Part shown: piece after piece, positions 1,666 through 11,855 of the stretch
Numbering within the stretch: position 1 is the first letter of the stretch
How the letters are laid out: each line of letters opens with the position of its first letter
Program-made: the position numbers and the translations under genes
Source: a virus
Taxonomy: Duplodnaviria; Heunggongvirae; Uroviricota; Caudoviricetes
IMG/VR virus record: IMGVR_UViG_3300010259_000016
Coordinates: 1 to 11,855 of that record
DNA: 11,855 nt
Strand: one strand, 5' to 3'
The notes under the pieces: generated by a model
What the model was told of the DNA's origin: nothing
The model's input: the letters and a program-made list of their open reading frames with translations, nothing else
Databases searched by the model: none

Positions 1666-3168
1666 TTACCGTCCAATGATTAACGCTGAGACGCTGGTAT
1701 CTGAAGGAAAGGCTGCATTCAGTGGTTTGTCGACTTTGAATACAATCGTATTATTCCCCCGGACAGCGGCAAAAGAACAAACCGCCGTCGCGTATGAACC
1801 TGTAATATTACTGGATACACCACCATAGGCTGTTGTTGATACCAGAGGGATAACGCCCAGCACCTTATTAGGAAATACAAAGGGCAATGTGGCTGTGGCA
1901 ATATAAGACTTATTAGAACCTGTAATGGCATAAGCATTATCAGTCATTCCATTCATCGCCACTGGACCGCTTATACTTACAGTAACCATCTGAGTGATTA
2001 GCCCGTCAGGTTGACGAATCACAAAATTTCCATTGCCACCAGTAACCGTCCAGAAAGACATATCAGGGATTTGGTTTTCCCCGTTGCCCACATTCCGTTT
2101 TGCCGCTTCTCCCAAACCAAGGTATGCGAGAAGACCAGCTACATCCTTTCCACTCAAATTGGTAAGCGTATTGTCCAGCGGTTGTTTACCTGCCAGCGCA
2201 TTAAGCATTGTCGTGGCAAAGTTCGGATCATTCCCCAGTGCCGCCGCCAGTTCGTTCAGTGTATCCAGTGCCGCAGGTGCAGAACCCACCATTGCTGCAA
2301 TCGCTGATTTCACAAAAGCTGTAGTGGCAATCTGTGTATTGTTGACCGACTGTGCCGCAGTAGGTGCTGTTGGCGTTCCGGTGAGTGCCGGACTCGACAG
2401 CGGTGCTTTTAGTGCCAGCGTATTGTTAATGGTGGTACTGAATTTCGGGTCATTGTTAATGGCTGCGGCAATTTCTTTCAGTGTGTCCAGCGTGGCTGGC
2501 GCACCGTTAATCAGAGCAGTAATAGCGGCCTGAACAAACTCAGTGGTCGCAATCCGCGTGGTGTTATTTCCTGCTGCAGGCGTCGGCGCTTTTGGTTCTC
2601 CGGTAAATGTCGGATTATGTTTCTGCGCATACTGGGTATGAGGATCTTGTGCGGCAATGTGGTTTCTCATCTGGTCATCCACATACAGCTTTAATTCCAG
2701 GACTTCATCATCCACATATTTACGGGTTGCCAGCACTACAGCAGGGTCGATTTTCAGGGTGATTTTGTCCGTACTGCTGGTAATCAGCACCATGCGCACG
2801 GTCTGGGTGCGCCCGCTGCCTTCAGCCAGTTGCGGCTTATAGCTTTCCGGGCAGTTGCCCACGGCAATCAATGCCCCGGACTCATCAAACAGGCCCACTT
2901 CACGTATCCACCAACCGCCCTCGTTTTCAGGGATCACCTGTTCAGCAATAATCTGGCTGCTGTTCTGCGGGTCGATATAAAGCATATTCAGCGCAGCCCG
3001 GCGTTTCTCATTTACCAGTGCCGTCTGCTTTGCGTCCGGCGTTGGCAATACTCCGCCGCCATCGCCCACCGCCATATGGGTAATTTTTAGCGGCACACCG
3101 AGCGCGGCGGCGCTGGCAAGTTTCGCCGCGCCAATATCCGTCAGCAGGGTATAAAATTTTGTGCTCAT
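1666..3168 (-). CDS. H: Tail fibre protein (P2 gpH-like): constant N-terminal part 2120..3168, currently fused to the variable C-terminal part 1666..2119
   Basis: 500 aa. N-terminus MSTKFYTLLTDIGAAKLASAAALGVPLKITHMAVGDGGG...ESYKPQLAEGSGRTQTVRMV matches the P2 gpH N-terminal anchor as I remember it. Internal tandem repeats are present. The crossover site falls in codons 350..354 (LGLGE). Confidence 0.9.
   Translation of the reverse strand: MSTKFYTLLTDIGAAKLASAAALGVPLKITHMAVGDGGGVLPTPDAKQTALVNEKRRAALNMLYIDPQNSSQIIAEQVIPENEGGWWIREVGLFDESGALIAVGNCPESYKPQLAEGSGRTQTVRMVLITSSTDKITLKIDPAVVLATRKYVDDEVLELKLYVDDQMRNHIAAQDPHTQYAQKHNPTFTGEPKAPTPAAGNNTTRIATTEFVQAAITALINGAPATLDTLKEIAAAINNDPKFSTTINNTLALKAPLSSPALTGTPTAPTAAQSVNNTQIATTAFVKSAIAAMVGSAPAALDTLNELAAALGNDPNFATTMLNALAGKQPLDNTLTNLSGKDVAGLLAYLGLGEAAKRNVGNGENQIPDMSFWTVTGGNGNFVIRQPDGLITQMVTVSISGPVAMNGMTDNAYAITGSNKSYIATATLPFVFPNKVLGVIPLVSTTAYGGVSSNITGSYATAVCSFAAVRGNNTIVFKVDKPLNAAFPSDTSVSALIIGR
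2107..2132. other. Invertase crossover site 2 (gix/hix-like, 26 bp), inside the tail-fibre coding sequence
   Basis: TTCTCCCAAACC-AA-GGTATGCGAGAA. The inner half-site and central dinucleotide are the exact reverse complement of site 1 (188..199 plus TT at 186..187). Confidence 0.8.
2179..2583 (-). repeat. Internal tandem duplication within the tail-fibre gene (two copies of about 60-70 codons)
   Basis: Protein repeats TTRIATTEFVQAAITALINGAPATLDTLKEIAAAINNDPKFSTTINNTLALKAP and NTQIATTAFVKSAIAAMVGSAPAALDTLNELAAALGNDPNFATTMLNALAGKQP. The corresponding DNA is visibly similar (for example gtggcaatctgtgtattgttgac versus ggtcgcaatccgcgtggtgttatt). Confidence 0.7.
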
Positions 3169-3770
3169 GGATTCACTCTCATTGTGTCAATAACATGGAC
3201 CGCCCCGCCTTCATGCGCGGTGCCACCGGAAATAATCGTTTCGTTGATATACGGATAGATCGTGATTTCTTCGCCAAGATAGCTGGCGGCTCCCACCCAA
3301 TGCGGGCCGCTGGTCTGCAGATTGATGGACATGCCGATCATGTGGCGGCTACATGGTTTGGCATCGCTTATCAGTCGCTCAAGTTCCAGATAGGTATCTT
3401 CAGTGATGCCCTGGTCCTGCACGCCGATATCCAGGCGAAACGTGCCCGGTGCCTCTCCGGTCTGCCACCACTCAATAATGCGGATCAGAAAGCCGAACGG
3501 CTCCACCACCCGCCGCACGGCACTGGTGGTCCCTTTATGCTGATGAATATAAAAAGCATCCTTCACCACCTGGCGCTTGACGCTTTCTGTCCAGCCCTCG
3601 TCCCAGCGATCCACAGAGAACGCCCAGGCGAGATAAGGCAGGAAACTGACCGGACAGGTTGCCGGATTCCACAAGTCACGAAGCGGCACCTGCAGATCAG
3701 AAATCCCGCTGCAGGTTTGCGCCAGTCGGCGCTCCAGTGGTGTTGAACCCGGTGGCAGCAGACTATTCAT
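3165..3770 (-). CDS. I: Baseplate/tail protein I (P2 gpI-like)
   Basis: 201 aa. Position between the baseplate J gene and the tail fibre gene, overlapping the fibre start by 4 nt (ATGA). Sequence MNSLLPPGSTPLERRLAQT...FLPYLAWAFSVDRWDEGW is typical of P2 gpI-family proteins. Confidence 0.8.
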   Translation of the reverse strand: MNSLLPPGSTPLERRLAQTCSGISDLQVPLRDLWNPATCPVSFLPYLAWAFSVDRWDEGWTESVKRQVVKDAFYIHQHKGTTSAVRRVVEPFGFLIRIIEWWQTGEAPGTFRLDIGVQDQGITEDTYLELERLISDAKPCSRHMIGMSINLQTSGPHWVGAASYLGEEITIYPYINETIISGGTAHEGGAVHVIDTMRVNP

Positions 3771-4671
3771 CCGTTCCTCCGTTGGTTACGCTCCACTGCG
3801 TACATGATGCCGCCTGTGTTTTGTTCAGGACCACATCCGCCAGAGGAGAAGCCAGCTCCACACGCTGCACACCCTCAACATGCAGGGAGGCAAAGATGGC
3901 GCTACGGCGAATATCCCGACCAAGACGCGTCTGACTGGCGATGTACTTCTGCAGGCTGGCTTTTGCCGCTGCCATTACCGGCTCTGCTTCCGGTCCAGGA
4001 TAGAGAAAAATGGTGGCTTCCACGCGATACGGGATGATTTCTGCGCTGCGAACCGTAAGACGGTCAGCCACCGGGCGGACGTTCTCACTGTTCAGAGCTT
4101 TTTCCACCACGTCCAGCAGGTCTTTTTCTGCGGTTCCATCGCCTTCGCGGCTAAGGACAGTCAGCACCACCTCTGCAGGTGCCGGGCTGGTTGCACTGAC
4201 ATCCGCCACCCGACCGTCGGCGCTTCGGGCATGAAATTCATAAGCTGCAGTTGGCCCCGCAACTGAAAGCCCTTCAAAGGCTGCAGGCACACGCAGGCGT
4301 AACGCTTCATCGCTTTCCATCACAGCTGCAACGGGCGGCACAGCGTCATTATCAGCAGGCGTCACCGTCAGGCGTTTCACGTTGTAGTTGGCAGCGAGCT
4401 GGTCAAGATCGCTGCCCATCGCGTAAGCCACCATCACAGCCTGCGCGGCTTCGTTAATGCGCTGGCGCAGAAGCAACTCACGGTAAGCGTTCTCCTGCAG
4501 CAATTTGGTGACGGGTTCAGATTCCAGTTCCAGCGTACGGATCACTGCTTCCTGCTCATCTTTCGGATGAAGCGCCACAAATTCGGCCTTGCGTTCGGCA
4601 AGCAGCGTCTCAAAGTCCGGCACATCCACAATCTGCGGCGCAGGCAACTGCGAAAGGTCAATCACTGCCAT
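3763..4671 (-). CDS. J: Baseplate wedge protein J (P2 gpJ-like)
   Basis: Track ORF 3763..4710. The likely start is the internal Met at 4671 (MAVIDLSQLPAPQIVDVPDFETLLAERKA...), preceded by an AGGAG Shine-Dalgarno; this matches the remembered P2 gpJ N-terminus. C-terminus ...RVELASPLADVVLNKTQAASCTQWSVTNGGTDE. Confidence 0.9.
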   Translation of the reverse strand: MAVIDLSQLPAPQIVDVPDFETLLAERKAEFVALHPKDEQEAVIRTLELESEPVTKLLQENAYRELLLRQRINEAAQAVMVAYAMGSDLDQLAANYNVKRLTVTPADNDAVPPVAAVMESDEALRLRVPAAFEGLSVAGPTAAYEFHARSADGRVADVSATSPAPAEVVLTVLSREGDGTAEKDLLDVVEKALNSENVRPVADRLTVRSAEIIPYRVEATIFLYPGPEAEPVMAAAKASLQKYIASQTRLGRDIRRSAIFASLHVEGVQRVELASPLADVVLNKTQAASCTQWSVTNGGTDE

Positions 4672-5017
4672 TCTCTGCTCCTGTTGATACGGAAAGGGAA
4701 ACGGGCACACCGTTATTACGCCGCCCGCTCAGCGCCACCACCATTGAACCGTCAAAATTGCTGTTGATGGTGATGGAATCCAGCGTCATCCGTGGCTCCC
4801 AGCGACTCAGCGCCACATACACTGCCGACATGACCTGCAGGCGTAATGCCGGATTTTGTGGCTGGTCTATTAGCGACGACAGCAGGGAACCATATTCACG
4901 ACGAGCAATGCGGCTACCCTGCGGCGTCAGCAGAATGTCCCGCACCGACTGGCGCAGATGGTCAATATCAGTAATGACTTTGCCGCTGGTATTGTTCATC
5001 CCGCTATAAAGCGTCAT
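4658..5017 (-). CDS. W: Baseplate assembly protein W (gpW / gp25-like)
   Basis: 119 aa. Lies between V and J with overlapping start and stop codons. Size and sequence (...ILLTPQGSRIARREYGSLLSSLID...) fit the GPW/gp25 family. Confidence 0.85.
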   Translation of the reverse strand: MTLYSGMNNTSGKVITDIDHLRQSVRDILLTPQGSRIARREYGSLLSSLIDQPQNPALRLQVMSAVYVALSRWEPRMTLDSITINSNFDGSMVVALSGRRNNGVPVSLSVSTGAENGSD

Positions 5018-5592
5018 ACCGGGCCTCCGGTTGTATCGCCGCCTTTCAGGACGCCAGTATGCTGATGCGCATCAACCACGATCCCGTTAGAACTCATCGC
5101 TCCGCCTCCCTGGGTAACGCCACCATTGATCACCACTTCGCTGTTAATGCGCGTGCGGTCAGCCTCCAGTACAAACTCACTGGTTTTCATGGTGATGTTG
5201 TCAGCGGCCTCAATGACCATTGATTTGATGCCCCTGACATACCAGCGCCCGGTGGCGGGTTCGTATTCAAACCAGCCACCGTCAGGATGTTCTGTCACGC
5301 AGGCGTCCGCCGACGTCGACGGTGGCGCGAACTGATTCGAATAGATGGCGGGTAACGCAAAGGCGGTTTCCAGATTGCCGCCCAGACTCAGCAGCACCAC
5401 CTGCTCACCTTCCGATGGTCGCCACCATGTGCGGGCATTCCCGGCACGCAGCGTCAGCCAGCTGATCCAGTTGGTTTCAAGCTCGCCCGTTTTCACCCGG
5501 CAAAGCCAGTTTTCCCTGTCCACTTCGGTGACTACCCCTGTGCGGATCAGGTTGGTGATAAGGCGCATGATTTCGGTTAATTGTGCGTTCAT
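5014..5592 (-). CDS. V: Baseplate assembly/spike protein V (P2 gpV-like)
   Basis: 192 aa. MNAQLTEIMRLITNLIRTGVVTEVDRENWLCRVKTGELETNWISWLTLRAGNARTWWRPSEGEQV resembles the P2 gpV N-terminus. C-terminal ...HQHTGVLKGGDTTGGPV. Confidence 0.85.
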   Translation of the reverse strand: MNAQLTEIMRLITNLIRTGVVTEVDRENWLCRVKTGELETNWISWLTLRAGNARTWWRPSEGEQVVLLSLGGNLETAFALPAIYSNQFAPPSTSADACVTEHPDGGWFEYEPATGRWYVRGIKSMVIEAADNITMKTSEFVLEADRTRINSEVVINGGVTQGGGAMSSNGIVVDAHQHTGVLKGGDTTGGPV

Positions 5593-5637
5593 AGGGAAAG
5601 GTTGCCATCAGGGGAAGAAAGGCGGCAGTGCTGCAAC

Positions 5638-5655
5638 TTGTATCAGTGCTGATAC
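5638..5655. promoter_or_regulatory. TGT-N12-ACA dyad in the S-V intergenic gap; candidate Ogr/Delta-type late-promoter activator site (P_V-like) for the V-W-J-I-H operon
   Basis: TGTATCAGTGCTGATACA is a near-perfect palindrome matching the P2 late-promoter activator motif, located in the only gap (5593..5660) between S and V. Confidence 0.5.
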
Positions 5656-5660
5656 AAAGA

Positions 5661-6107
5661 TCACCCCGCCAGCCATTGCAGAATCATGTCGCGGGTCATT
5701 GCCTCAACATCATCATTTACACCCAGCAGGCGGCGCTCTGCGTAACGGACCTCCGGTCCTTTGCGACTGACGCGATCACGCAGGCCGTAATGGTGAACAC
5801 GGGCAATACGCTGCACCTTGCCTTCAAACTGTACGCTGGCAGAGTCGGCGCTGGCGGCAGTTTTCAGGTATTTTGTGGTGCGCAGCTTTGCAAACATCTG
5901 ACGTTTGATGCGCCCCTTCTTGCTGCGTGCTGTTACCCTGCGCGGTTCATAACTGCTGCCATCTGGATTGCGCTGCATCCTGATATTCTGCTGCTGTGTC
6001 CGGCGCAGTTCCTGCGCCAGCTGGCGCATCATGCGGCTTCTCGTGTCTGGTTCCAGATTCGCCAGCAAGGCACTCAGCCAGTCGTCCACCTTCTGCAGTT
6101 CAGCCAC
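5661..6107 (-). CDS. S: Tail completion protein S (P2 gpS-like virion morphogenesis protein)
   Basis: 148 aa. Position after R and before V. Sequence MAELQKVDDWLSALLANLEPDTRSRMMRQLAQELRR... is typical of the phage virion morphogenesis family. Confidence 0.8.
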   Translation of the reverse strand: MAELQKVDDWLSALLANLEPDTRSRMMRQLAQELRRTQQQNIRMQRNPDGSSYEPRRVTARSKKGRIKRQMFAKLRTTKYLKTAASADSASVQFEGKVQRIARVHHYGLRDRVSRKGPEVRYAERRLLGVNDDVEAMTRDMILQWLAG

Positions 6108-6552
6108 GTTTCACCGTCCACATTTCTTCAGGTTCATCGGGTTCTGCTACAGCTTCAACGCTCGACACACTGCCGTCAGTGCTGACCAGCACACGTTCCG
6201 TCAGTTGCAGGTTAAGGCTGATATCACAGACATCGTTGCGCAAAATATCCACATCAAAGGTGAATAGCTTTTCCCGTAACGCCGGGTTATTGATGGCATC
6301 GGGCTGGTTATCCCGAAGCCACAGTAAAACCGGGGCCATCAGCAGATTCTGGTCGCCGCTGAAATCCTCTATCACCACGTTCAGGGTATAGCGGTACTCC
6401 CATGACATGGAGCTGGCCCCCGTGGCAACCAGCGAACCGTTATCCACAAACAGATGCAGTTTGTCCGGGTTATTGCGGACATAAGGCACCGCTTTATTGA
6501 GGGCGTGGCGAAGGGATTGTGGTTTGTTCACTGTTTCGCTCCTGACACGCAA
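6100..6552 (-). CDS. R: Tail completion protein R (P2 gpR-like)
   Basis: 150 aa. Motif LFVDNGSLVATGASSMSWEYRYTLNVVIEDFSGD...LLWLRDNQPD matches gpR-family proteins. Overlaps the S start by 8 nt. Confidence 0.8.
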   Translation of the reverse strand: MRVRSETVNKPQSLRHALNKAVPYVRNNPDKLHLFVDNGSLVATGASSMSWEYRYTLNVVIEDFSGDQNLLMAPVLLWLRDNQPDAINNPALREKLFTFDVDILRNDVCDISLNLQLTERVLVSTDGSVSSVEAVAEPDEPEEMWTVKRG

Positions 6553-6784
6553 TAATCATGTCCACTTTGTCTGCACAGACCGCCCAGGCGGCCTCCGTTT
6601 CATCCAGCAACGCGTTCAGGTCACCGTTAGTGCGCGGCGCTGCCTGCCCCAGCCGACACGGCGTCACTCGCGGACAACCACTGACGGTAAGCTGCACCTC
6701 CGGTGAGTGTGGGGCGTTCCCGCAGCCGGATAATGTCAGCAGGCAAAGGAGTATCAGCCCAGCGGCGTAAATCCTCGTTCTCAC
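6494..6784 (-). CDS. lysC: Outer-membrane spanin lipoprotein (LysC / Rz1-like), nested in another frame within lysB and running into R
   Basis: 96 aa. MRTRIYAAGLILLCLLTLSGCGN... has a signal peptide followed by an LSGC lipobox. Proline-rich. Embedded out of frame in the i-spanin gene as in P2 lysB/lysC. Confidence 0.7.
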   Translation of the reverse strand: MRTRIYAAGLILLCLLTLSGCGNAPHSPEVQLTVSGCPRVTPCRLGQAAPRTNGDLNALLDETEAAWAVCADKVDMIIACQERNSEQTTIPSPRPQ

Positions 6785-7055
6785 GTTTCAGTTCCTCAAT
6801 CCGGTGTTGTCGTTGTCTCAGTAGTGCGCTGGTCTGTTCTGCGTCGGCATAGAGTAGCGCCTGCTCCCGGTTGTTGGTTTCTGTCAGAATGGACAGGCTG
6901 ATAAGCTGGCTGTTGCTCTTTGCCAGTGCCTGGCTTTTGCTCCGAAGCTCGTCTGCCTGCGTGCTGATGGTCTGGCTGGCATCAGCCAGCCGCCACGTCT
7001 GCCAGCCCAGCGCCGCCAGTAATAACGCCAGCACAACCAGCAGCAACCGGTTCAT
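6627..7055 (-). CDS. lysB: Inner-membrane spanin (LysB / Rz-like)
   Basis: 142 aa. N-terminal transmembrane helix MNRLLLVVLALLLAALGW followed by a charged, coiled-coil-like periplasmic region (ELRSKSQALAKSNSQL...RQRQHRIEELKRENEDLRRW). Confidence 0.75.
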   Translation of the reverse strand: MNRLLLVVLALLLAALGWQTWRLADASQTISTQADELRSKSQALAKSNSQLISLSILTETNNREQALLYADAEQTSALLRQRQHRIEELKRENEDLRRWADTPLPADIIRLRERPTLTGGAAYRQWLSASDAVSAGAGSAAH

Positions 7056-7429
7056 GCTGCTACCTGTTGCGCCATCTGATTACGGGTGATCCAGAAGGCA
7101 ATAACGGTCAGTAGATAAAAGACCAGGGTAATAGCCCACCCCGTCCAGGCGAGACTGACGACAATCAGCAATCGCATCATCCAGCTGATAAATACGTTTT
7201 CTTTTCGGGTAATTGTCTTCAGCAAAGATGCCCTCAACTCCTGCCAGAGCGGGCCATTCTTAATTAACGCAGCCAGTGCTACCGGAATTACCGCCCATGT
7301 CAGCAAACAGGCTACCCAAACGCCGGACGCTGCCAGTACCGGAAAAATCCCCTGCGGATACACCATTGCGGCGATTAACAGCGCCATCCATAACATCAGA
7401 AACAGCCCGCTGATTAATTTCTTTTTCAT
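7052..7429 (-). CDS. lysA: LysA-like multi-pass membrane protein (lysis timing accessory)
   Basis: Track ORF 7052..7501. The likely start is MKKKLISGLFLMLWMALLIAAM at 7429, preceded by a GGGAG Shine-Dalgarno. About four hydrophobic helices. Sits between endolysin and spanins as P2 lysA does. Confidence 0.6.
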   Translation of the reverse strand: MKKKLISGLFLMLWMALLIAAMVYPQGIFPVLAASGVWVACLLTWAVIPVALAALIKNGPLWQELRASLLKTITRKENVFISWMMRLLIVVSLAWTGWAITLVFYLLTVIAFWITRNQMAQQVAA

Positions 7430-7430
7430 T

Positions 7431-7943
7431 TCAGTTTGCTCCCTGTAAACACCAGGCCATCTCCCGCGCACGGCGGTTATCCAGCCCCTGATTAAACACA
7501 CCTTTTACATAAACCCAGCGCGGCAACTGTCGGCACGCATCCGCCCAGCGCCGCTGATTGAGTAATTTCACCAGCGTGGAACTGCAGGCATTGCCCGTAC
7601 CCACGTTGAAGGCAAACGACACCGCAGCGTCATACACCTTCTGCGGCGGCTGTTGCTTCACACACCTTTCCAGCGCCCGCTCCACACGCAGCACGTTGGA
7701 GATCAGCCCTTCCGCTGCCTGTCGTTCCGTAATGGTTTTGCCTGGAATGACGCCAGATGTATTACCAATGCCGTCGGTCCAGACACCCGCGCTGCACTGA
7801 TACGGCTGCAGACGACAGCCTTCGTAATCGGCAATCAGTTTCAGTCCCTCCACGGAGGTGTGAAGCTGCTGAAAACCCGGCAGCGTGGCAGCAATAGCCA
7901 GCACGGCCCCGACAAGGCAGCGTTTAACGATTGATGGATTCAT
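7431..7943 (-). CDS. SAR endolysin (lysozyme, P1 Lyz / phage 21 R-like)
   Basis: 170 aa. N-terminal Gly/Ala-rich weakly hydrophobic helix KRCLVGAVLAIAATLPGF (signal-arrest-release type), then EGCRLQPYQCSAGVWTDGIGNTSGV, which closely resembles the P1 Lyz catalytic region as I remember it. Confidence 0.85.
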   Translation of the reverse strand: MNPSIVKRCLVGAVLAIAATLPGFQQLHTSVEGLKLIADYEGCRLQPYQCSAGVWTDGIGNTSGVIPGKTITERQAAEGLISNVLRVERALERCVKQQPPQKVYDAAVSFAFNVGTGNACSSTLVKLLNQRRWADACRQLPRWVYVKGVFNQGLDNRRAREMAWCLQGAN

Positions 7944-8139
7944 AGTCCTCCCGCGAGATCTGCCCGTCGCGCAGAAGCTGGTAGGCTTTGTGTTTGTAGT
8001 ACCAGTTGATAGCCAGCATCAGCACACCAATCATCAGGCCGCCCAGCGTTGAGGCATCCTTGATGGACAAATCGCCCAGCCAGGCCAGCACAACGGCGAT
8101 GCAGTACGTGATAAAGGCGCTGATTCGCTCAAGCGTCAT
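7924..8139 (-). CDS. Small two-helix holin (class II-like, possibly a pinholin partner of the SAR endolysin)
   Basis: 71 aa. Two hydrophobic helices (ISAFITYCIAVVLAWLG and LGGLMIGVLMLAINWYY) and a charged C-terminal tail KHKAYQLLRDGQISREDYESINR. Immediately upstream of and overlapping the endolysin gene. Confidence 0.65.
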   Translation of the reverse strand: MTLERISAFITYCIAVVLAWLGDLSIKDASTLGGLMIGVLMLAINWYYKHKAYQLLRDGQISREDYESINR

Positions 8140-8142
8140 AAT

Positions 8143-8346
8143 TCAGTCCCATAGCTGGACGGTCTGCACGGTGGTGGTGGGCGGAATGTCCGGCAGCTCC
8201 ACCGGCAGCCCGTGAGGTAAAAAGGGGCCATATTCGGCAAGCCCCGGATTTGCCTTCAGTACCTGCTCCGTGACCCCCTGCGTGCGCCCGTAATGACGCC
8301 AGCAAAGCGCGTCCACCGTGTCATACTGATGCGCACGCACTTTCAT
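8143..8346 (-). CDS. X: Tail protein X (P2 gpX-like)
   Basis: 67 aa. MKVRAHQYDTVDALCWRHYGRTQGVTEQVLKANPGLAEYGPFLPHGLPVELPD matches the remembered P2 gpX sequence pattern and its length. Confidence 0.8.
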   Translation of the reverse strand: MKVRAHQYDTVDALCWRHYGRTQGVTEQVLKANPGLAEYGPFLPHGLPVELPDIPPTTTVQTVQLWD

Positions 8347-8810
8347 CAGATAAGCTCCACTGTGCAGTGCGGCGCATCCTGCACCCGGCTGATGGCCCAG
8401 CGGGCGTCACGCCACAAATCACCGCTGGATTCCGCCAGTTCCTCGCCTCGCTTCACACCGGATGCCGTGGCGTCATAGTCCTGGTATCGTTCGTTGAGCA
8501 TGGCGCGTGCCCAGCAGTAAACTGCGTTGAAATAGTGCTGAATGCGCTCACTTTTGCCGTCCAGCTGTTCCGCCGGAACCTCAGCCAGCGACGCATACCC
8601 CAGCATCTGCTGACGTCTGCGAAACTCATACAGCTCTGCGTTGACCTCCGAAATTGCCGACAGCGCAACCTGCTTTAAACGCGGCTGCGTCACCGTGCCG
8701 TCAGTGCGCATGACACTGCGAAACTCCGACAGGTCCACATCAGGCCAGAACGGCGTATTTCTGATGATTTCCGCCTGTTCCGGTGCCTGTTCTGGCGCAA
8801 CAAACTTCAT
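8346..8810 (-). CDS. L: Head completion/stabilisation protein L (P2 gpL-like)
   Basis: Track ORF 8346..8873. Start chosen at MKFVAPEQ (8810) because AGGAGA lies 7 nt upstream, whereas the ATG at 8873 has no evident ribosome-binding site. Position between M and X. Confidence 0.7.
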   Translation of the reverse strand: MKFVAPEQAPEQAEIIRNTPFWPDVDLSEFRSVMRTDGTVTQPRLKQVALSAISEVNAELYEFRRRQQMLGYASLAEVPAEQLDGKSERIQHYFNAVYCWARAMLNERYQDYDATASGVKRGEELAESSGDLWRDARWAISRVQDAPHCTVELI

Positions 8811-8905
8811 GCTGCTTTCTCCTGAAATAGAGGGCGGTGGACGGGGTTTTGATGTGGCAGTGCCTTTCGCCACCCCGTGCCGCCCGTGCGCGGGGGCACG
8901 TTCTG

Positions 8906-9556
8906 TCAGCGGCTGTCATTGCGCAGTCTGCGCTCCAGCTGCTGTTTGTCTTTTTTCACGCCACAGCGGGGATCGAGCTGTAACGCATGGTTGAGATGAT
9001 TAAGGGCGGAAGCCGGGTTGCTTTCACTCAGGACAGCGCCAATCGCTTTATGCAGACGCGCCCGTGACTGGTCCGGCATATCCATACCGTCTGTCAGCTC
9101 CAGGGTCTGCAGCAACAGATCGGCATCAAAGCCGGTGGCGGCAAGCATTGCGCTCTGGGCTGCATCTGCCATTTCCTCTGCCAGCACGGTCTGCACGTTG
9201 CGGTTACCTAACGGCATCACCCAGCCATGACGCAGGGCGTGACGCCCGATCTCCAGCGCCCCGGCATAATCTCCGGCATCAATGCGCCACAGCATCACGT
9301 ACATCAGCACGTCATCCTGCTGTGCGCCTCCGGCAGTCAGGACACCCTCTGCCCAGGCGGCGTACTTCGGCAGCAGTTCCACCTTAATCTCCGCTTTTTT
9401 GACCGTGGACTGAACGCCCTTGAGACGGCGGCGGTCTTCCGCCAGTTGCAGCAGCATCAGGTCATAGCCCGACGCGTGGCGAACGCTGCCGCCCTCACGG
9501 GCGGCCTGTTCAGCCTGAACGCGCAGGCGATGCTGCCGTGCGGGACTCAGGCTCAT
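8906..9556 (-). CDS. M: Terminase small (endonuclease) subunit M (P2 gpM-like)
   Basis: 216 aa. ...LPKYAAWAEGVLTAGGAQQDDVLMYVMLWRIDAGDYAGALEIGRHALRHGWVMP... matches the gpM family. Directly downstream of the major capsid gene. Confidence 0.85.
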   Translation of the reverse strand: MSLSPARQHRLRVQAEQAAREGGSVRHASGYDLMLLQLAEDRRRLKGVQSTVKKAEIKVELLPKYAAWAEGVLTAGGAQQDDVLMYVMLWRIDAGDYAGALEIGRHALRHGWVMPLGNRNVQTVLAEEMADAAQSAMLAATGFDADLLLQTLELTDGMDMPDQSRARLHKAIGAVLSESNPASALNHLNHALQLDPRCGVKKDKQQLERRLRNDSR

Positions 9557-9559
9557 GGG

Positions 9560-10618
9560 TTACGCTCCGGCTTCTGCTGCAGCGGCGCTGAAATCGCCAA
9601 TCTGGATGTTTTCCACCAGTGCGGCGCAGCGGTAGTCCTCAACCACATAGGCTTCGTTAACGGATTCAAAGTTTTCAATCCGGTCACGTTTCGGGTTGTC
9701 GATAACTGAACGGCGGCGGGTGTCTTCCTGCCAGTAGATGGACAGGTTATCCAGACGGGTGATCAGCAGCGCATTCGGCGGGAAGAACGGCGCACGCACG
9801 GCCTGCAGGCCACCCATGCGTTTCTGGCTGATGATCATATCGGCAGCCAGTTTTTCACTGTTTTCCTGCTCTTTGTTGACCAGCGGGAAATACTTGTCAG
9901 ACAGCAGTTCACGACCGCAAATCACCACCAGATCGTCATCGTCCTGGTAGACCACGTCGATAAGCTCATTGACGGCATCCATCACCACTGCGTCCAGGTT
10001 GGCATATTCGCCACCTTTACCGACTTTCACCGCACCCGGTGTGGTTTCACCGCCCGTGGTGGTGCTGCCCATGACGTGATCCGGTGCATCCTCACGGATT
10101 TTCTGCAGCCAGCCTTTGTTCACATCCTGCAGTAGCGGGTTTTCACTACGGTTGGAGGTTTTCGCACGCTTCACGCCGTTAAAGCCGATCATGATGCGGT
10201 CCAGTGCCTGACGTTTCACGATGGCGTCACGGATACGCACCTGGAAATCCTGAAACTTCGCCCACAGGTCCAGCTTCGCGTAGGTCAGCACCGTGTCAAA
10301 GTTGGTCTGCTCGCATTTATATTCCACATCGACCATCAGCGTCGGATCGACAGGTTCACGCTCTTTCGCGGTGGTGTCAGTGGTTCCGGCAATGGTGCTG
10401 CCAACACCCAGCCCCAGCAGCTGACCGGACTGCTCAGTCACTGGCGTGACGTTAATCAGCGTCAGGAAAGCGGCGGACTGCTGGATCTGGTCTTCCAGCG
10501 TCTGCTGTACAGACGGCTCCACGGTGAACTTGCTGGACAGTTCTTCAACTGCCACACCGTTCAGACGCGCCAGCTGCTGCAGGTAAGCGTTAAAAGCAAA
10601 GCGGGTATTCTTCTTCAT
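9560..10618 (-). CDS. N: Major capsid protein N (P2 gpN-like)
   Basis: 352 aa. Position between scaffold and small terminase. Sequence and length fit the P2 major capsid family. Confidence 0.9.
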   Translation of the reverse strand: MKKNTRFAFNAYLQQLARLNGVAVEELSSKFTVEPSVQQTLEDQIQQSAAFLTLINVTPVTEQSGQLLGLGVGSTIAGTTDTTAKEREPVDPTLMVDVEYKCEQTNFDTVLTYAKLDLWAKFQDFQVRIRDAIVKRQALDRIMIGFNGVKRAKTSNRSENPLLQDVNKGWLQKIREDAPDHVMGSTTTGGETTPGAVKVGKGGEYANLDAVVMDAVNELIDVVYQDDDDLVVICGRELLSDKYFPLVNKEQENSEKLAADMIISQKRMGGLQAVRAPFFPPNALLITRLDNLSIYWQEDTRRRSVIDNPKRDRIENFESVNEAYVVEDYRCAALVENIQIGDFSAAAAEAGA

Positions 10619-10634
10619 CAGGTTTTGTGCTCCA

Positions 10635-11468
10635 TCAGCAATTGGTCAGAGTGTCAGCGGGGGCGTTACCGCCTGTTGCACGCTGGCGGTAGTCCTGGCG
10701 GCTGTCTTCATGGCTCAGCTTGTCCACCAGTTCGTTAAAGGCGGTCTGCTGTGCCTGCAGGGCAGTCTCCAGCTCAGACAGGCGTTCTTCCTGCTCAGAC
10801 AGGGATTTTTCGGTGCGCGCACTCAGGTTCTGCTGCTCAGTGGCGACCAGTTCCACGGCCTTATGCACATCAGAGAACCGGGCGTCATCGGACTGCTCTT
10901 TTTTGGTGAACAGCGCCGTGACACGGGCAAACAGGGACGGTTTGTCATCCTGGATTTCTTCCAGTTCGATCACCGTTTCCTCTGCAGCGGTAAAGAGATT
11001 GGCAGGATTCTGCTTCCGGTTTGCCAGCGGGTTATGGGCCGCACTGGCGCTGAATGTCAGCATTTCAGTGCCCAGACTGGCAGGGTCATCAGTGGCAGCC
11101 AGGCCGACCAGGTAGGCTTTGCCCGTATCAGCAAACTTCGGGCTGACTTCCATAGAGGTGAATAATTTCTGGCCTTTTTTCACCAGTTCCACCAGGGACT
11201 CCGTTGGCTCAACGTCGGCATACAGCGCCATCTTGCCTGCCAGCGGACCTTCCGTGATTTCTTCAGCAAACAGCGCAGTCACCTTGCCGTAGCGGTTAAA
11301 GGTGCTGTCCGGCAGATAAGACTTGATGTGCTCAAGGTTAATCAGCGCGGTATACACCGCCGGGTTGTAGCTGGCTGCCATCTGTTCCAGCCATTCACGC
11401 TGGATTTCGCGTCCGTCGGTGGTGGCACCTTCCACCCCGATGCGAAAACGCTTTGCTTTCACTGTCAT
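10635..11468 (-). CDS. O: Capsid scaffolding protein O (P2 gpO-like)
   Basis: 277 aa. Acidic, coiled-coil-rich C-terminal half (ELEEIQDDK...SEQEERLSELETALQAQQTAFNELVDKL) and position directly upstream of the capsid gene. Confidence 0.85.
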   Translation of the reverse strand: MTVKAKRFRIGVEGATTDGREIQREWLEQMAASYNPAVYTALINLEHIKSYLPDSTFNRYGKVTALFAEEITEGPLAGKMALYADVEPTESLVELVKKGQKLFTSMEVSPKFADTGKAYLVGLAATDDPASLGTEMLTFSASAAHNPLANRKQNPANLFTAAEETVIELEEIQDDKPSLFARVTALFTKKEQSDDARFSDVHKAVELVATEQQNLSARTEKSLSEQEERLSELETALQAQQTAFNELVDKLSHEDSRQDYRQRATGGNAPADTLTNC

Positions 11469-11547
11469 GAGCCGTGCTCCGTTAGAAAAAACTTACTGGA
11501 GCCTTATGGTTGCGGTGATGGGGGCAGTGAAACAATGCGCGGTATTT

Positions 11548-11565
11548 GTACCGACAACCACACAA
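11548..11565. promoter_or_regulatory. TGT-N12-ACA dyad in the O-P divergent intergenic region; candidate late-promoter activator site
   Basis: TGTACCGACAACCACACA lies in the 142-bp gap between the divergent O and P starts. If centred at about -55 it would serve a leftward promoter with a roughly 33-nt leader before O. Confidence 0.45.
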
Positions 11566-11610
11566 ACCGCAGGCGGGGAAAGCCTTCATTCAAGGCTGTA
11601 GGTTTGTGCC

Positions 11611-11855
11611 ATGAACACCACACTGACACCCGCAGATCTCGATCCCCGTCGGCAGGCCATGCTGCTGTACTTTCAGGGATACCGCGTCGCCCGCATTGCT
11701 GAAATGCTGGGCGAGAAAGTTGCAACCGTTCACAGCTGGAAAAAACGCGACAAGTGGGGTGACTATGGGCCGCTGGATCAGATGCAGCTCACCACCGCCG
11801 CACGCTACTGCCAGCTCATTATGAAGGAGCACAAAGAAGGGAAAGATTTCAAAGA
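11611..11855 (+). CDS. P: Terminase large (ATPase) subunit P, N-terminal 81 codons; continues beyond the right edge
   Basis: Open frame from the ATG at 11611 to the window end: MNTTLTPADLDPRRQAMLLYFQGYRVARIAEMLGEKVATVHSWKKRDKWGDYGPLDQMQ.... Divergent from O as in P2 gene order (Q-P then O-N-M-L). Not in the ORF track because no stop codon is reached. Confidence 0.6.
   Translation, partial: MNTTLTPADLDPRRQAMLLYFQGYRVARIAEMLGEKVATVHSWKKRDKWGDYGPLDQMQLTTAARYCQLIMKEHKEGKDFK

Follow-up and report, generated by a model that had tools for sequence, protein, structure and literature searches.

Genes of the lysis cassette

The window, that is, the whole stretch of 11,855 nt of viral DNA analysed here, carries a lysis cassette on the minus strand at 6494-8139, which consists of genes for a holin, an endolysin, a LysA homologue and a LysB/LysC spanin pair (Table 1). 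All of the genes that an earlier note on this DNA had described were found where it had placed them, on the minus strand, with family matches far beyond chance. The same note had read the flanking genes as following the order of phage P2, with X upstream and R and S downstream of the cassette, and both the family matches and the identities to P2 proteins agree with this. R forms the downstream boundary, and its GTG start at 6531 is in agreement with the N-terminus of P2 R and with the PGAP call. In addition to the values given in Table 1, amino-acid identity to P2 is 49% for M, 40% for L, 42% for V and 55% for W; LysC is 43% identical to its P2 counterpart over residues 1-92 and LysB 38% over 53 aa (E 1.4e-9). 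On these matches, X, LysA, LysB, LysC, R and S, in and around the cassette, are homologues of the P2 proteins of the same names. In a scan of 5400-9000, promoters and terminators were no more numerous than expected from shuffled sequence, and nothing equivalent to the lysC attenuator of P2 stood out.

Table 1 Genes of the lysis cassette and its neighbours in the window, in order of transcription. Coordinates are those of the window. E denotes expectation value; scores in bits are followed by the cut-off of the family model.
Gene	Coordinates	Strand	Length (aa)	Predicted product	Matches
X	8143-8346	-		Tail protein X; upstream cassette boundary, P2 backbone gene	PF05489, E 1e-33; 60% identical to P2 X
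Holin	7924-8139	-	71	Class II holin, HP1 holin family	PF16080; phrog_20
Endolysin	7431-7943	-	170	P1 Lyz-type SAR endolysin, GH24 lysozyme	PF00959; 1XJT
LysA	7052-7429	-	125	LysA homologue	NF038378, 123.1 bits (40), E 7.5e-36; phrog_162, E 1.5e-43
LysB	6627-7055	-	142	i-spanin (Rz-like)	TIGR03495, 170.9 bits (92.75), E 1.6e-50; phrog_89, E 3.2e-44
LysC	6494-6784	-	96	o-spanin lipoprotein (Rz1-like)	NF038368, 124.8 bits (27), E 1.2e-36; PF23793, E 3.6e-15
R	6100-6531	-		Tail completion protein R; P2 backbone gene	PF06891, E 4.9e-47; 54% identical to P2 R
S	5661-6107	-		S, downstream of the cassette	39% identical to P2 S

Holin

The predicted holin scores 36.7 bits on PF16080 (cut-off 28.8) and matches the phrog_20 family 'holin' with E 1.9e-26; in PGAP annotation, an identical protein carries the name 'HP1 family phage holin'. 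Its ATG lies 3 nt past the stop codon of X, with GGGA upstream. Hydropathy bears out the earlier description of a 71-residue protein with two helices, which are located at residues 6-22 and 31-47 with a predicted N-in/C-in topology. The loop is net-negative (1 K/R, 2 D/E), and the C-terminal tail, led by KHK, is charged (5 K/R, 4 D/E). Against solved structures, the holin gave only chance matches to photosystem I helices, with E 0.83 or worse.

The holin had previously been assigned to the P1 or phage 21 type rather than to that of P2. The exclusion of P2 stands: there is no match to PF04550, the model on which P2 Y scores 143.6 bits, and the comparison with gpY itself gave just a weak hydrophobic match (28% over 54 aa). 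The positive part of the assignment needs correction, since the protein bears no resemblance to the P1 holins LydA, LydC, LydD and LydE and its score on the phage 21 S family (PF04971; 23.2 bits, E 7e-5) does not reach the cut-off of 26. By its family matches, the predicted holin is a member of the HP1 family and not of the P2 gpY family. Haemophilus phages HP1 and HP2 carry a holin of the same PF16080 family (82.5 bits for that of HP2) adjacent to a P1 Lyz-like lysozyme with the same cysteine pattern. The HP2 proteins are 22% (holin) and 35% (lysozyme) identical to those of the window, and in HP2 the pair follows the genes for the tail sheath and tube instead of lying between X and R.

Phage 21 resembles the window in combining a small two-helix holin with a signal-arrest-release (SAR) lysozyme, and its R protein is a clear homologue of the window endolysin (3HDE, E 1e-17). 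However, phage 21 R has Asp in its catalytic triad (PMC3556154) and is not known to use disulfide caging, and phage 21 S, unlike the window holin, has a dual start. The window holin might still be a pinholin of the phage 21 type, forming nanometre pores that do not release cytoplasmic endolysin and working as one half of a pinholin/SAR-endolysin pair, and we give this reading a substantial chance, though somewhat below even. SAR endolysins typically adjoin pinholin genes (PMC9025707), the protein is small with two helices, the second of which carries a G34-x3-G38 motif, and the match to the S family of phage 21, although below threshold, points in the same direction. Nevertheless, that match falls below the Pfam cut-off whereas the HP1 match lies above its own, and we found no dual-start motif in the holin, which has a single start codon with M1 as the sole N-terminal Met and M36 as the next. 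Helix 1 looks stable rather than releasable because its Kyte-Doolittle mean is 2.12 and just 35% of its residues are Gly, Ala, Ser or Thr, which is more hydrophobic and poorer in Gly, Ala and Ser than expected of a releasable helix of the phage 21 type, although composition alone is not decisive. Furthermore, the published heptamer model of the identical protein of Klebsiella phage KP12 (KP12.peg.320) is of low confidence, with pLDDT 50.8 (PMC9902359), and the P1 SAR endolysin works with canonical holins (PMC9025707).

LysA and spanins

The LysA homologue has about four transmembrane segments by hydropathy, and P2 LysA obtains a similar score on the same family model (NF038378, 120.9 bits). 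Its ATG lies one base past the stop codon of the endolysin gene (7431-7433); a longer GTG-started reading frame, extending to 7501, is probably not used. Comparison with P1 LydA, LydB, LydC, LydD and LydE gave nothing meaningful. An antiholin role of LysA comes from P2 genetics, and the window homologue is a probable lysis-timing or antiholin protein.

Four-helix proteins of the LysA family occur beside holins of two families that are unrelated to each other. In P2, the neighbour of LysA is gpY with its three helices, and both the LysA of Escherichia phage Midge and the divergent LysA of the window sit with an HP1-family holin and a SAR endolysin. RE-2010, with an HP1-type holin, and PsP3, with a Y-type holin, are both without LysA.

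We also considered that LysA, if it is a lysis timer, acts independently of the holin, or else that the HP1-family holin is a pinholin lacking a dual start and a releasable first helix; taken together, we regard this proposal as unlikely. A holin-independent LysA may act on membrane energisation or on the tether of the SAR endolysin, which would set it apart from an antiholin that works specifically by binding to its cognate holin.

LysB has an N-terminal transmembrane helix at about residues 4-20, and its start codon overlaps the stop of LysA (ATGA). LysC starts with GTG and contains the lipobox LSGC with Cys21; the 3' end of its gene overlaps R by 38 nt. LysC had been described as nested in LysB. 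The two genes have 158 nt in common and 133 nt of LysC lie past the LysB stop, and the pair is therefore overlapped instead, an architecture of two-component spanins defined previously (PMC6139136). Annotation errors recur in genes of these kinds, with LysA being labelled 'endolysin' and the starts of o-spanins being miscalled.

Endolysin

The endolysin matches PF00959 over residues 39-161 with E 4.6e-40. Among solved structures, P1 Lyz (1XJT, E 2e-26) comes closest, followed by phage 21 R, and the alignment with P1 Lyz covers 172 aa at 37% identity (E 1e-33). The earlier description of the enzyme as P1 Lyz-like rather than gpK-like agrees with these matches; against P2 gpK there is no real match (24 aa at E 0.015). 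The gene begins within the 3' end of the holin gene, with an overlap of 20 nt, after a GGGAGGA ribosome-binding site. Residues 41-62 form the motif EGCRLQPYQCSAGVWTDGIGNT, and the catalytic triad E41-C50-T56 has the form Glu-8X-Cys-5X-Thr, with Cys replacing Asp, by which the P1 Lyz class is defined (PMC3556154). The predicted caging partner is Cys43, two residues past the catalytic Glu. In an alignment of the endolysins of the window, RE-2010, Midge, vB_YenM_06.16-2, HP2 (Lys) and P1 (Lyz), residues C9, E41, C43, C50 and T56 are invariant and correspond to C13, E42, C44, C51 and T57 of P1 Lyz. The roles of the SAR-domain Cys and the caging Cys of P1 Lyz in a disulfide isomerisation switch were reportedly established by Xu et al. 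in 2005.

P1 Lyz (1XJT/1XJU) is the prototype of disulfide-regulated SAR endolysins and has the GH24 family, the triad, the SAR-domain Cys and the caging Cys in common with the window enzyme. Its catalytic Cys is kept in a disulfide until activation (PMC3556154). The seven Cys of the window endolysin equal those of P1 Lyz in number and order. The two enzymes also differ: past the FNVG motif, P1 Lyz, like HP2 Lys, carries 12 inserted residues that the window endolysin lacks, and the hydrophobic core of the latter is the shorter one. In P1, lyz is not part of a cassette of the P2 type, and the holins with which it is paired (LydA, LydC and LydD) are unrelated to the window holin.

The N-terminus of the endolysin reads MNPSIVKR, in which K7 and R8 are basic, and continues with an uncharged 16-residue core, CLVGAVLAIAATLPGF (residues 9-24), that contains Cys9 and is 44% Gly+Ala+Ser+Thr. 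The best 17-residue Kyte-Doolittle window is 1.95, compared to 2.24 for P1 Lyz and 2.3-2.5 for the helices of LysA and LysB, relative to which the core is both shorter and less hydrophobic. Hydropathy thus agrees with the N-terminal helix of SAR type that had been proposed, with K7/R8 ahead of a weakly hydrophobic core. The order of basic residues, hydrophobic core and Pro-Gly is also that of signal peptides, but we consider it very unlikely that the segment is a cleavable Sec signal peptide of the ordinary kind, or an anchor that stays in the membrane permanently, rather than a releasable SAR domain. On inspection, neither a lipobox nor, past the core (PGFQQLHTS), a cleavage site of the small-x-small or Ala-x-Ala type is present. 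In the alignment, the segment corresponds to the SAR domain of P1 Lyz, which has been experimentally defined and is uncleaved. It keeps C9, the equivalent of P1 C13, a Cys that is needed only in a domain that is retained at first and released afterwards. Expert annotators, moreover, name the Midge homologue a SAR endolysin (PMC12697156). Because the seven Cys, including the three of the disulfide switch, and the catalytic Glu and Thr match those of P1 Lyz, a P1-type SAR mechanism is, by homology, the best reading for this enzyme.

Our single-sequence AlphaFold2 model of the endolysin is of low confidence (pLDDT 44.5, pTM 0.45). A published model of the KP12 endolysin has a pLDDT of about 94 and a TM-align score of 0.83 to 1XJT, and the purified KP12 enzyme showed lytic properties when spotted on Klebsiella (PMC9902359). 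Catalytic activity of the window endolysin is thereby loosely supported.

Related cassettes and origin of the mosaic

Klebsiella phage KP12 (clone KP12_3, KP12.peg.316-320) has the same gene order as the window, with identities of 71/71 for the holin, 167/170 for the endolysin, 123/125 for LysA and 136/142 for LysB, and the published reading of these genes is that of a P2 cassette whose endolysin is Lyz-like and of the SAR type (PMC9902359). At the DNA level, the cassette is 96.5-97.4% identical to phage records (KP12, Klebsiella phage 4LV2017 and Escherichia phage 500465-1). In the prophage of E. coli MS1665, holin, endolysin and LysA are identical to those of the window and LysB differs by one residue; outside the cassette, the tail-fibre segment of the window has the opposite orientation to that in MS1665. 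The P2-like Escherichia phage Midge (PV287706) has the same order of X, class II holin, SAR endolysin, a LysA-type putative antiholin, i-spanin, o-spanin, R and S, and was published with a class II holin, a SAR endolysin and spanins (PMC12697156). Its endolysin is 62% identical to that of the window with all key residues kept, its holin just 30%, and its LysA 25%, as against 43% to P2 LysA.

The module was found at >=95% identity in 1032 of 5426 complete E. coli genomes, and the P2 Y/K module in 1498 of the same 5426. The cassette DNA matched 41 phage records, all of them either Felsduovirus or phages of Klebsiella, Escherichia, Salmonella or Yersinia. The holin protein has 83 matches, in records of about 18-40 kb, and P2 gene order surrounds the holin in each of the four records inspected (KP12, RE-2010, Midge and vB_YenM_06.16-2). 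The arrangement of the cassette is not new, as it has already been annotated and published for nearly identical phages, and the mosaic, instead of being peculiar to the window, is how the cassette is normally laid out in a large branch of P2-like phages that has been annotated before. In the literature, we found no paper joining signal-arrest-release with Fels-2, and Peduoviridae together with SAR endolysin returned just an unrelated skin-phageome paper.

One could suppose that the cassette is a recent recombinant, its holin and endolysin lately acquired by a P2-type phage either from P1 or from a lambdoid phage similar to phage 21. The replaced module comprises exactly two genes, between the conserved X and LysA, and phages equally distant in their backbone carry either module: Midge, with the SAR module, and P2, with Y/K, are both about 60% (X) and about 50% (R) identical to the window. 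We nonetheless hold a recent event to be highly improbable. The endolysin has just 37% of its residues in common with P1 Lyz, the holin is unlike LydA, LydC, LydD and LydE, and the G+C content lies at 0.55-0.58 across 7251-8250 and at 0.57-0.60 in most of the adjacent intervals. The divergence of the endolysin also tracks that of the backbone, since identities to RE-2010, Midge and vB_YenM_06.16-2 are 92%, 62% and 63% for the endolysin and 91%, 60% and 67% for X. The restriction of the cassette matches to phages of those four genera and Felsduovirus, and the P2 order around the holin in the inspected records, likewise speak against a recent acquisition. From the low identity to P1 Lyz, the lack of a P1-like holin, the G+C content, the parallel divergence of the backbone and the records with P2 order, the mosaicism is seen as old modular variation within Peduoviridae, and the exchange as ancient and family-wide.

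Comparison with P2 lysis and proposed mechanism

The P2 cassette (Y, K, lysA, lysB, lysC) has the same position from X to R, the same LysA, LysB and LysC families and the same overlapped spanin architecture. Its holin and endolysin differ from those of the window: gpY is a three-helix protein of PF04550 as opposed to the two-helix window holin of PF16080, and gpK, which has no hydrophobic segment and no match to PF00959, is similar to the structures 1AM7 and 3D3D of lambda R (E 4e-44). Orthology of the window proteins with gpK and gpY, to which the same position and similar sizes (170 vs 165 aa) might point, is refuted with practical certainty, as the families, the best structures (P1 Lyz for the window enzyme, lambda R for gpK) and the numbers of helices all differ and the endolysin matches gpK over those 24 aa only. 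Neither an endolysin orthologous to gpK nor an absence of the SAR helix was found, the two outcomes that the earlier note had named as contrary to its reading. Its central claim, namely that a P1 Lyz-like SAR module rather than Y/K is set in a P2 frame, is upheld because the holin belongs to PF16080 and not PF04550, the endolysin is like 1XJT and gpK is like lambda R.

The region is very likely the lysis cassette of a Peduoviridae (P2-like) prophage of E. coli or Klebsiella, with an alternative holin-endolysin module in the Y/K slot and lysis of the SAR type. Gene content, family memberships, residue conservation and hydropathy are observed directly, and the mechanism that we propose builds on them by homology. 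Late transcription from the promoter of the O operon would yield all five proteins. The Sec system would place the endolysin in the inner membrane as a type II signal anchor with its catalytic domain in the periplasm, where it would be kept inactive twice over, by the membrane tether and by a Cys43-Cys50 disulfide in which the catalytic Cys50 is tied up. Meanwhile, the class II holin would build up in the membrane, its timing probably modulated by the four-helix LysA homologue, until at the programmed time its holes collapse the membrane potential. Upon depolarisation, the weakly hydrophobic SAR helix would leave the bilayer and the free thiol of Cys9 would attack the caging disulfide, so that Cys50 is freed and the refolded enzyme can cleave the peptidoglycan; the LysB/LysC spanin complex would then disrupt the outer membrane. 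The steps that we infer here are export by Sec, SAR release, isomerisation of the disulfide and the part played by LysA.

P2 needs large holin holes for release of its enzyme because K is soluble and without a membrane segment. The window cassette, unlike P2, should need no large holin holes. Beyond correct annotation, the significance of the finding is small. For the mining of prophages for endolysins, the N-terminal membrane segment and the predicted regulatory disulfide would affect recombinant expression of this enzyme. For the biology of the family, P2-like prophages have two common versions of lysis, both widespread in E. coli: one with a soluble enzyme of the lambda R type, for which large holin holes are required, and one with a membrane-tethered lysozyme of the P1 type, for which depolarisation would suffice.

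Gene order and layout of the cassette

Profile searches matched the five proteins of the lysis cassette to their families far beyond chance, and the genes of interest are all encoded on the minus strand of the window, in P2 late-gene order, with V, W, J, I, H and then a tail-fibre assembly gene beyond S (see the table). The order expected in the earlier note, with X upstream, R and S downstream and LysA, LysB and LysC present, was recovered.

Features of the window, with positions, strands and family matches.
Feature	Position	Strand	Match or remark
P (large terminase), start	11611-11855	plus	Continues past right edge
O	10635-11468	minus	
N	9560-10618	minus	
M	8906-9556	minus	
L	8346-8810	minus	
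X	8143-8346	minus	
Holin, 71 aa	7924-8139	minus	PF16080 (HP1 holin family), 36.7 bits (cut-off 28.8)
Endolysin, 170 aa	7431-7943	minus	PF00959, E 4.6e-40
LysA homologue, 125 aa	7052-7429	minus	LysA family NF038378, E 7.5e-36
LysB	6627-7055	minus	TIGR03495, E 1.6e-50
LysC	6494-6784	minus	NF038368, E 1.2e-36
R	6100-6531	minus	
S	5661-6107	minus	
H C-terminus and assembly gene	1220-1663 (assembly gene)	minus	Inside invertible segment
Assembly gene of alternative C-terminus	646-1248	plus	In invertible segment
Alternative C-terminus	146-646	plus	In invertible segment
Serine DNA invertase, 5' end	1-118	minus	Continues past left edge

Reading the DNA directly shows that the cassette genes, which occupy exactly 6494-8139 from LysC stop to holin start, are tightly translationally coupled. 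The X stop is 3 nt from the holin ATG, the endolysin ATG lies inside the holin 3' end (20-nt overlap) behind a GGGAGGA ribosome-binding site, one base separates the endolysin stop codon from the LysA ATG, and the LysA stop is overlapped by the LysB start (ATGA). LysC is not nested in LysB as had been proposed; the two have 158 nt in common, but LysC continues 133 nt past the LysB stop. P2 is the textbook example of this 'overlapped' spanin architecture (PMC6139136). The S-V gap is only 68 nt (5593-5660), and the window phage lacks the non-essential orf30, which in P2 lies on the opposite strand between these genes. P is divergent from O, and its start matches the gene named 'terminase ATPase subunit' in the Escherichia coli MS1665 prophage; divergent late promoters should be found in the 142-nt O-P gap (11469-11610).

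Comparison with P2

We retrieved the P2 record and compared its proteins gene by gene with those of the window. The backbone proteins are clear P2 homologues (identities: M 49%, L 40%, X 60%, LysC 43%, R 54%, S 39%, V 42%, W 55%; LysB 38% over 53 aa), and both P2 LysA and the 125-aa protein match NF038378 at about 120 bits. The searches against gpY and gpK gave only weak matches, in agreement with a cassette distinct from P2 Y/K: the holin is 28% identical to gpY over 54 hydrophobic residues, and gpY itself belongs to PF04550 (143.6 bits) with three hydrophobic stretches. The endolysin was ruled out as a gpK orthologue, since only 24 residues match (E 0.015) and gpK is lambda R-like (structures 1AM7 and 3D3D, E 4e-44), with no PF00959 match in the profile scan and no hydrophobic segment in the hydropathy scan. 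Since the backbone and LysA, LysB and LysC are homologous to P2 while the holin and endolysin are not, the replaced module is exactly two genes, 7431-8139.

Endolysin and holin

The putative SAR (signal-arrest-release) N-terminus and the catalytic motif described earlier are both present: MNPSIVKR is followed by a 16-residue uncharged core, CLVGAVLAIAATLPGF (44% Gly+Ala+Ser+Thr), and residues 41-62 are the motif EGCRLQPYQCSAGVWTDGIGNT. Likeness to P1 Lyz was borne out by 37% identity over 172 residues (E 1e-33) and by the solved structures, of which P1 Lyz is the best relative (1XJT, 1XJU; E 2e-26), followed by phage 21 R (3HDE, 1e-17). When the window protein was aligned with P1 Lyz, with HP2 Lys and with three endolysins from P2-like phages, the fully conserved positions included C9, E41, C43, C50 and T56 (P1 Lyz C13, E42, C44, C51 and T57), and the window endolysin and P1 Lyz have seven cysteines in matching order. 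Xu et al. reportedly found in 2005 that Cys13 in the SAR domain of P1 Lyz resolves the Cys44-Cys51 bond. The catalytic Cys of P1 Lyz is kept in a disulfide until activation (PMC3556154). Given the P1 Lyz match, the invariant residues and the ordered cysteines, the endolysin belongs to the P1 disulfide-caged class and not to the phage 21 class. Gene content, residues and hydropathy were established directly; Sec export, membrane release, disulfide isomerisation and a LysA role would follow by homology.

The small two-helix holin was likewise as described, with two uncharged hydrophobic stretches (6-22 and 31-47), a net-negative loop between them, a charged tail starting YKHK and a single start codon. 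This layout is the class II N-in/C-in pattern; helix 1 is fairly hydrophobic (Kyte-Doolittle mean 2.12, 35% Gly/Ala/Ser/Thr). The holin had been likened to the P1 or phage 21 type rather than to gpY. Its distance from gpY stands, but the likeness needs correction: pairwise comparison gave no similarity to P1 LydA, LydC, LydD or LydE, the profile search left it below threshold for the phage 21 S family (23.2 bits vs 26), and its family is HP1. It may be either a pinholin or a large-hole holin; as P1 shows, SAR endolysins are able to work with pinholins and large-hole holins alike (PMC9025707).

LysA and annotation

LysA-family proteins adjoin two unrelated holin families, in the window, in Escherichia phage Midge (2709-3137 of the locus compared) and in P2 (2509-2931 of the locus compared). 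Midge LysA has 43% identity to its P2 counterpart, but its neighbours are a holin of HP1 type and a SAR endolysin. This would be odd if LysA were a holin-specific antiholin. Several annotation errors in LysA and LysC are propagating across records. PHROG 162 and the RefSeq P2 record (NC_001895) wrongly label LysA 'endolysin', the KP12 record OM835953 has a truncated o-spanin (174 nt), and PGAP starts lysC at a CTG (6742), where the GTG at 6784 instead gives a P2-like N-terminus (MRTRIYAAG vs MRTKIFAAG in P2).

Invertible tail-fibre segment

A host-range segment at about 186-2123 lies between 27-nt inverted repeats (174-200 and 2106-2132). It matches the MS1665 prophage with 99.7% identity but is turned the other way round, whereas positions 1-200 and 2106-11855 are collinear with that prophage. 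We take the repeats to resemble cix/gix/hix crossover sites. Matches to 4LV2017-type phages begin exactly at 2107, and the invertase fragment (MLIGYVRVSTNDQNTDLQRNAL...) corresponds to the 'recombinase family protein' adjoining the segment in MS1665.

Prevalence and earlier descriptions

Matches to the cassette DNA at 96.4-97.4% identity come from 30 phage records, among them Klebsiella phages KP12 and 4LV2017 and Escherichia phage 500465-1, and the entire window is about 96-97% identical to these records. The holin-endolysin pair is 100% identical in the MS1665 prophage, where PGAP names are 'HP1 family phage holin', 'lysozyme', 'DNZ54_00345 family protein', LysB and LysC. Among 5426 complete E. 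coli genomes, 1032 carry the HP1/SAR module at an identity of at least 95%, and 1498 carry the P2 Y/K module. The holin has 83 phage matches (records of about 18-40 kb), including Felsduovirus RE-2010, Yersinia and Erwinia phages and Midge, with P2 gene order in all four records inspected. For KP12.peg.316-320, P2 lysis-cassette architecture and an endolysin structurally like P1 Lyz with a conserved SAR domain were reported in 2023 (PMC9902359); KP12 and the window share 167/170 endolysin and 71/71 holin residues. The 2025 description of the P2-like phage Midge (PMC12697156) names spanins together with a class II holin and an endolysin of the signal-arrest-release type. With these reports and the near-identical annotated records, the finding of the earlier note is correct but already known: the observation is confirmed and its interpretation supported.

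The record OM835953.1 ('Klebsiella phage KP12 clone KP12_3, partial sequence') contains a P2-like contig of 34.8 kb and is assigned to Vequintavirinae, and for 'KP12' the paper PMC9902359 gives 397 genes and a further lysis cassette, which is T1-like. The deposit seems to combine several elements, and the P2-like contig may come from a host prophage that was induced, and not from the isolated phage.

Mosaicism of the cassette

Comparing divergence, G+C and P1 distance, we found no sign of recent exchange in the window. Endolysin identities to RE-2010, Midge and vB_YenM_06.16-2 are 92%, 62% and 63%, against 91%, 60% and 67% for X, and endolysin divergence thus tracks that of the backbone; module G+C (0.55-0.58) is near that of most surroundings, and the nearest P1 protein has only 37% identity. 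Midge and P2 are about equally far from the window (X 60% each, R 49% and 50%); the SAR module is in Midge and not in P2. PsP3 has Y/K without LysA, RE-2010 the HP1/SAR pair without LysA, P2 Y/K with LysA, and the window and Midge HP1/SAR with LysA. From these combinations, the holin-endolysin and LysA modules have assorted independently, and the cassette is 'mosaic' only in a deep, family-level sense.
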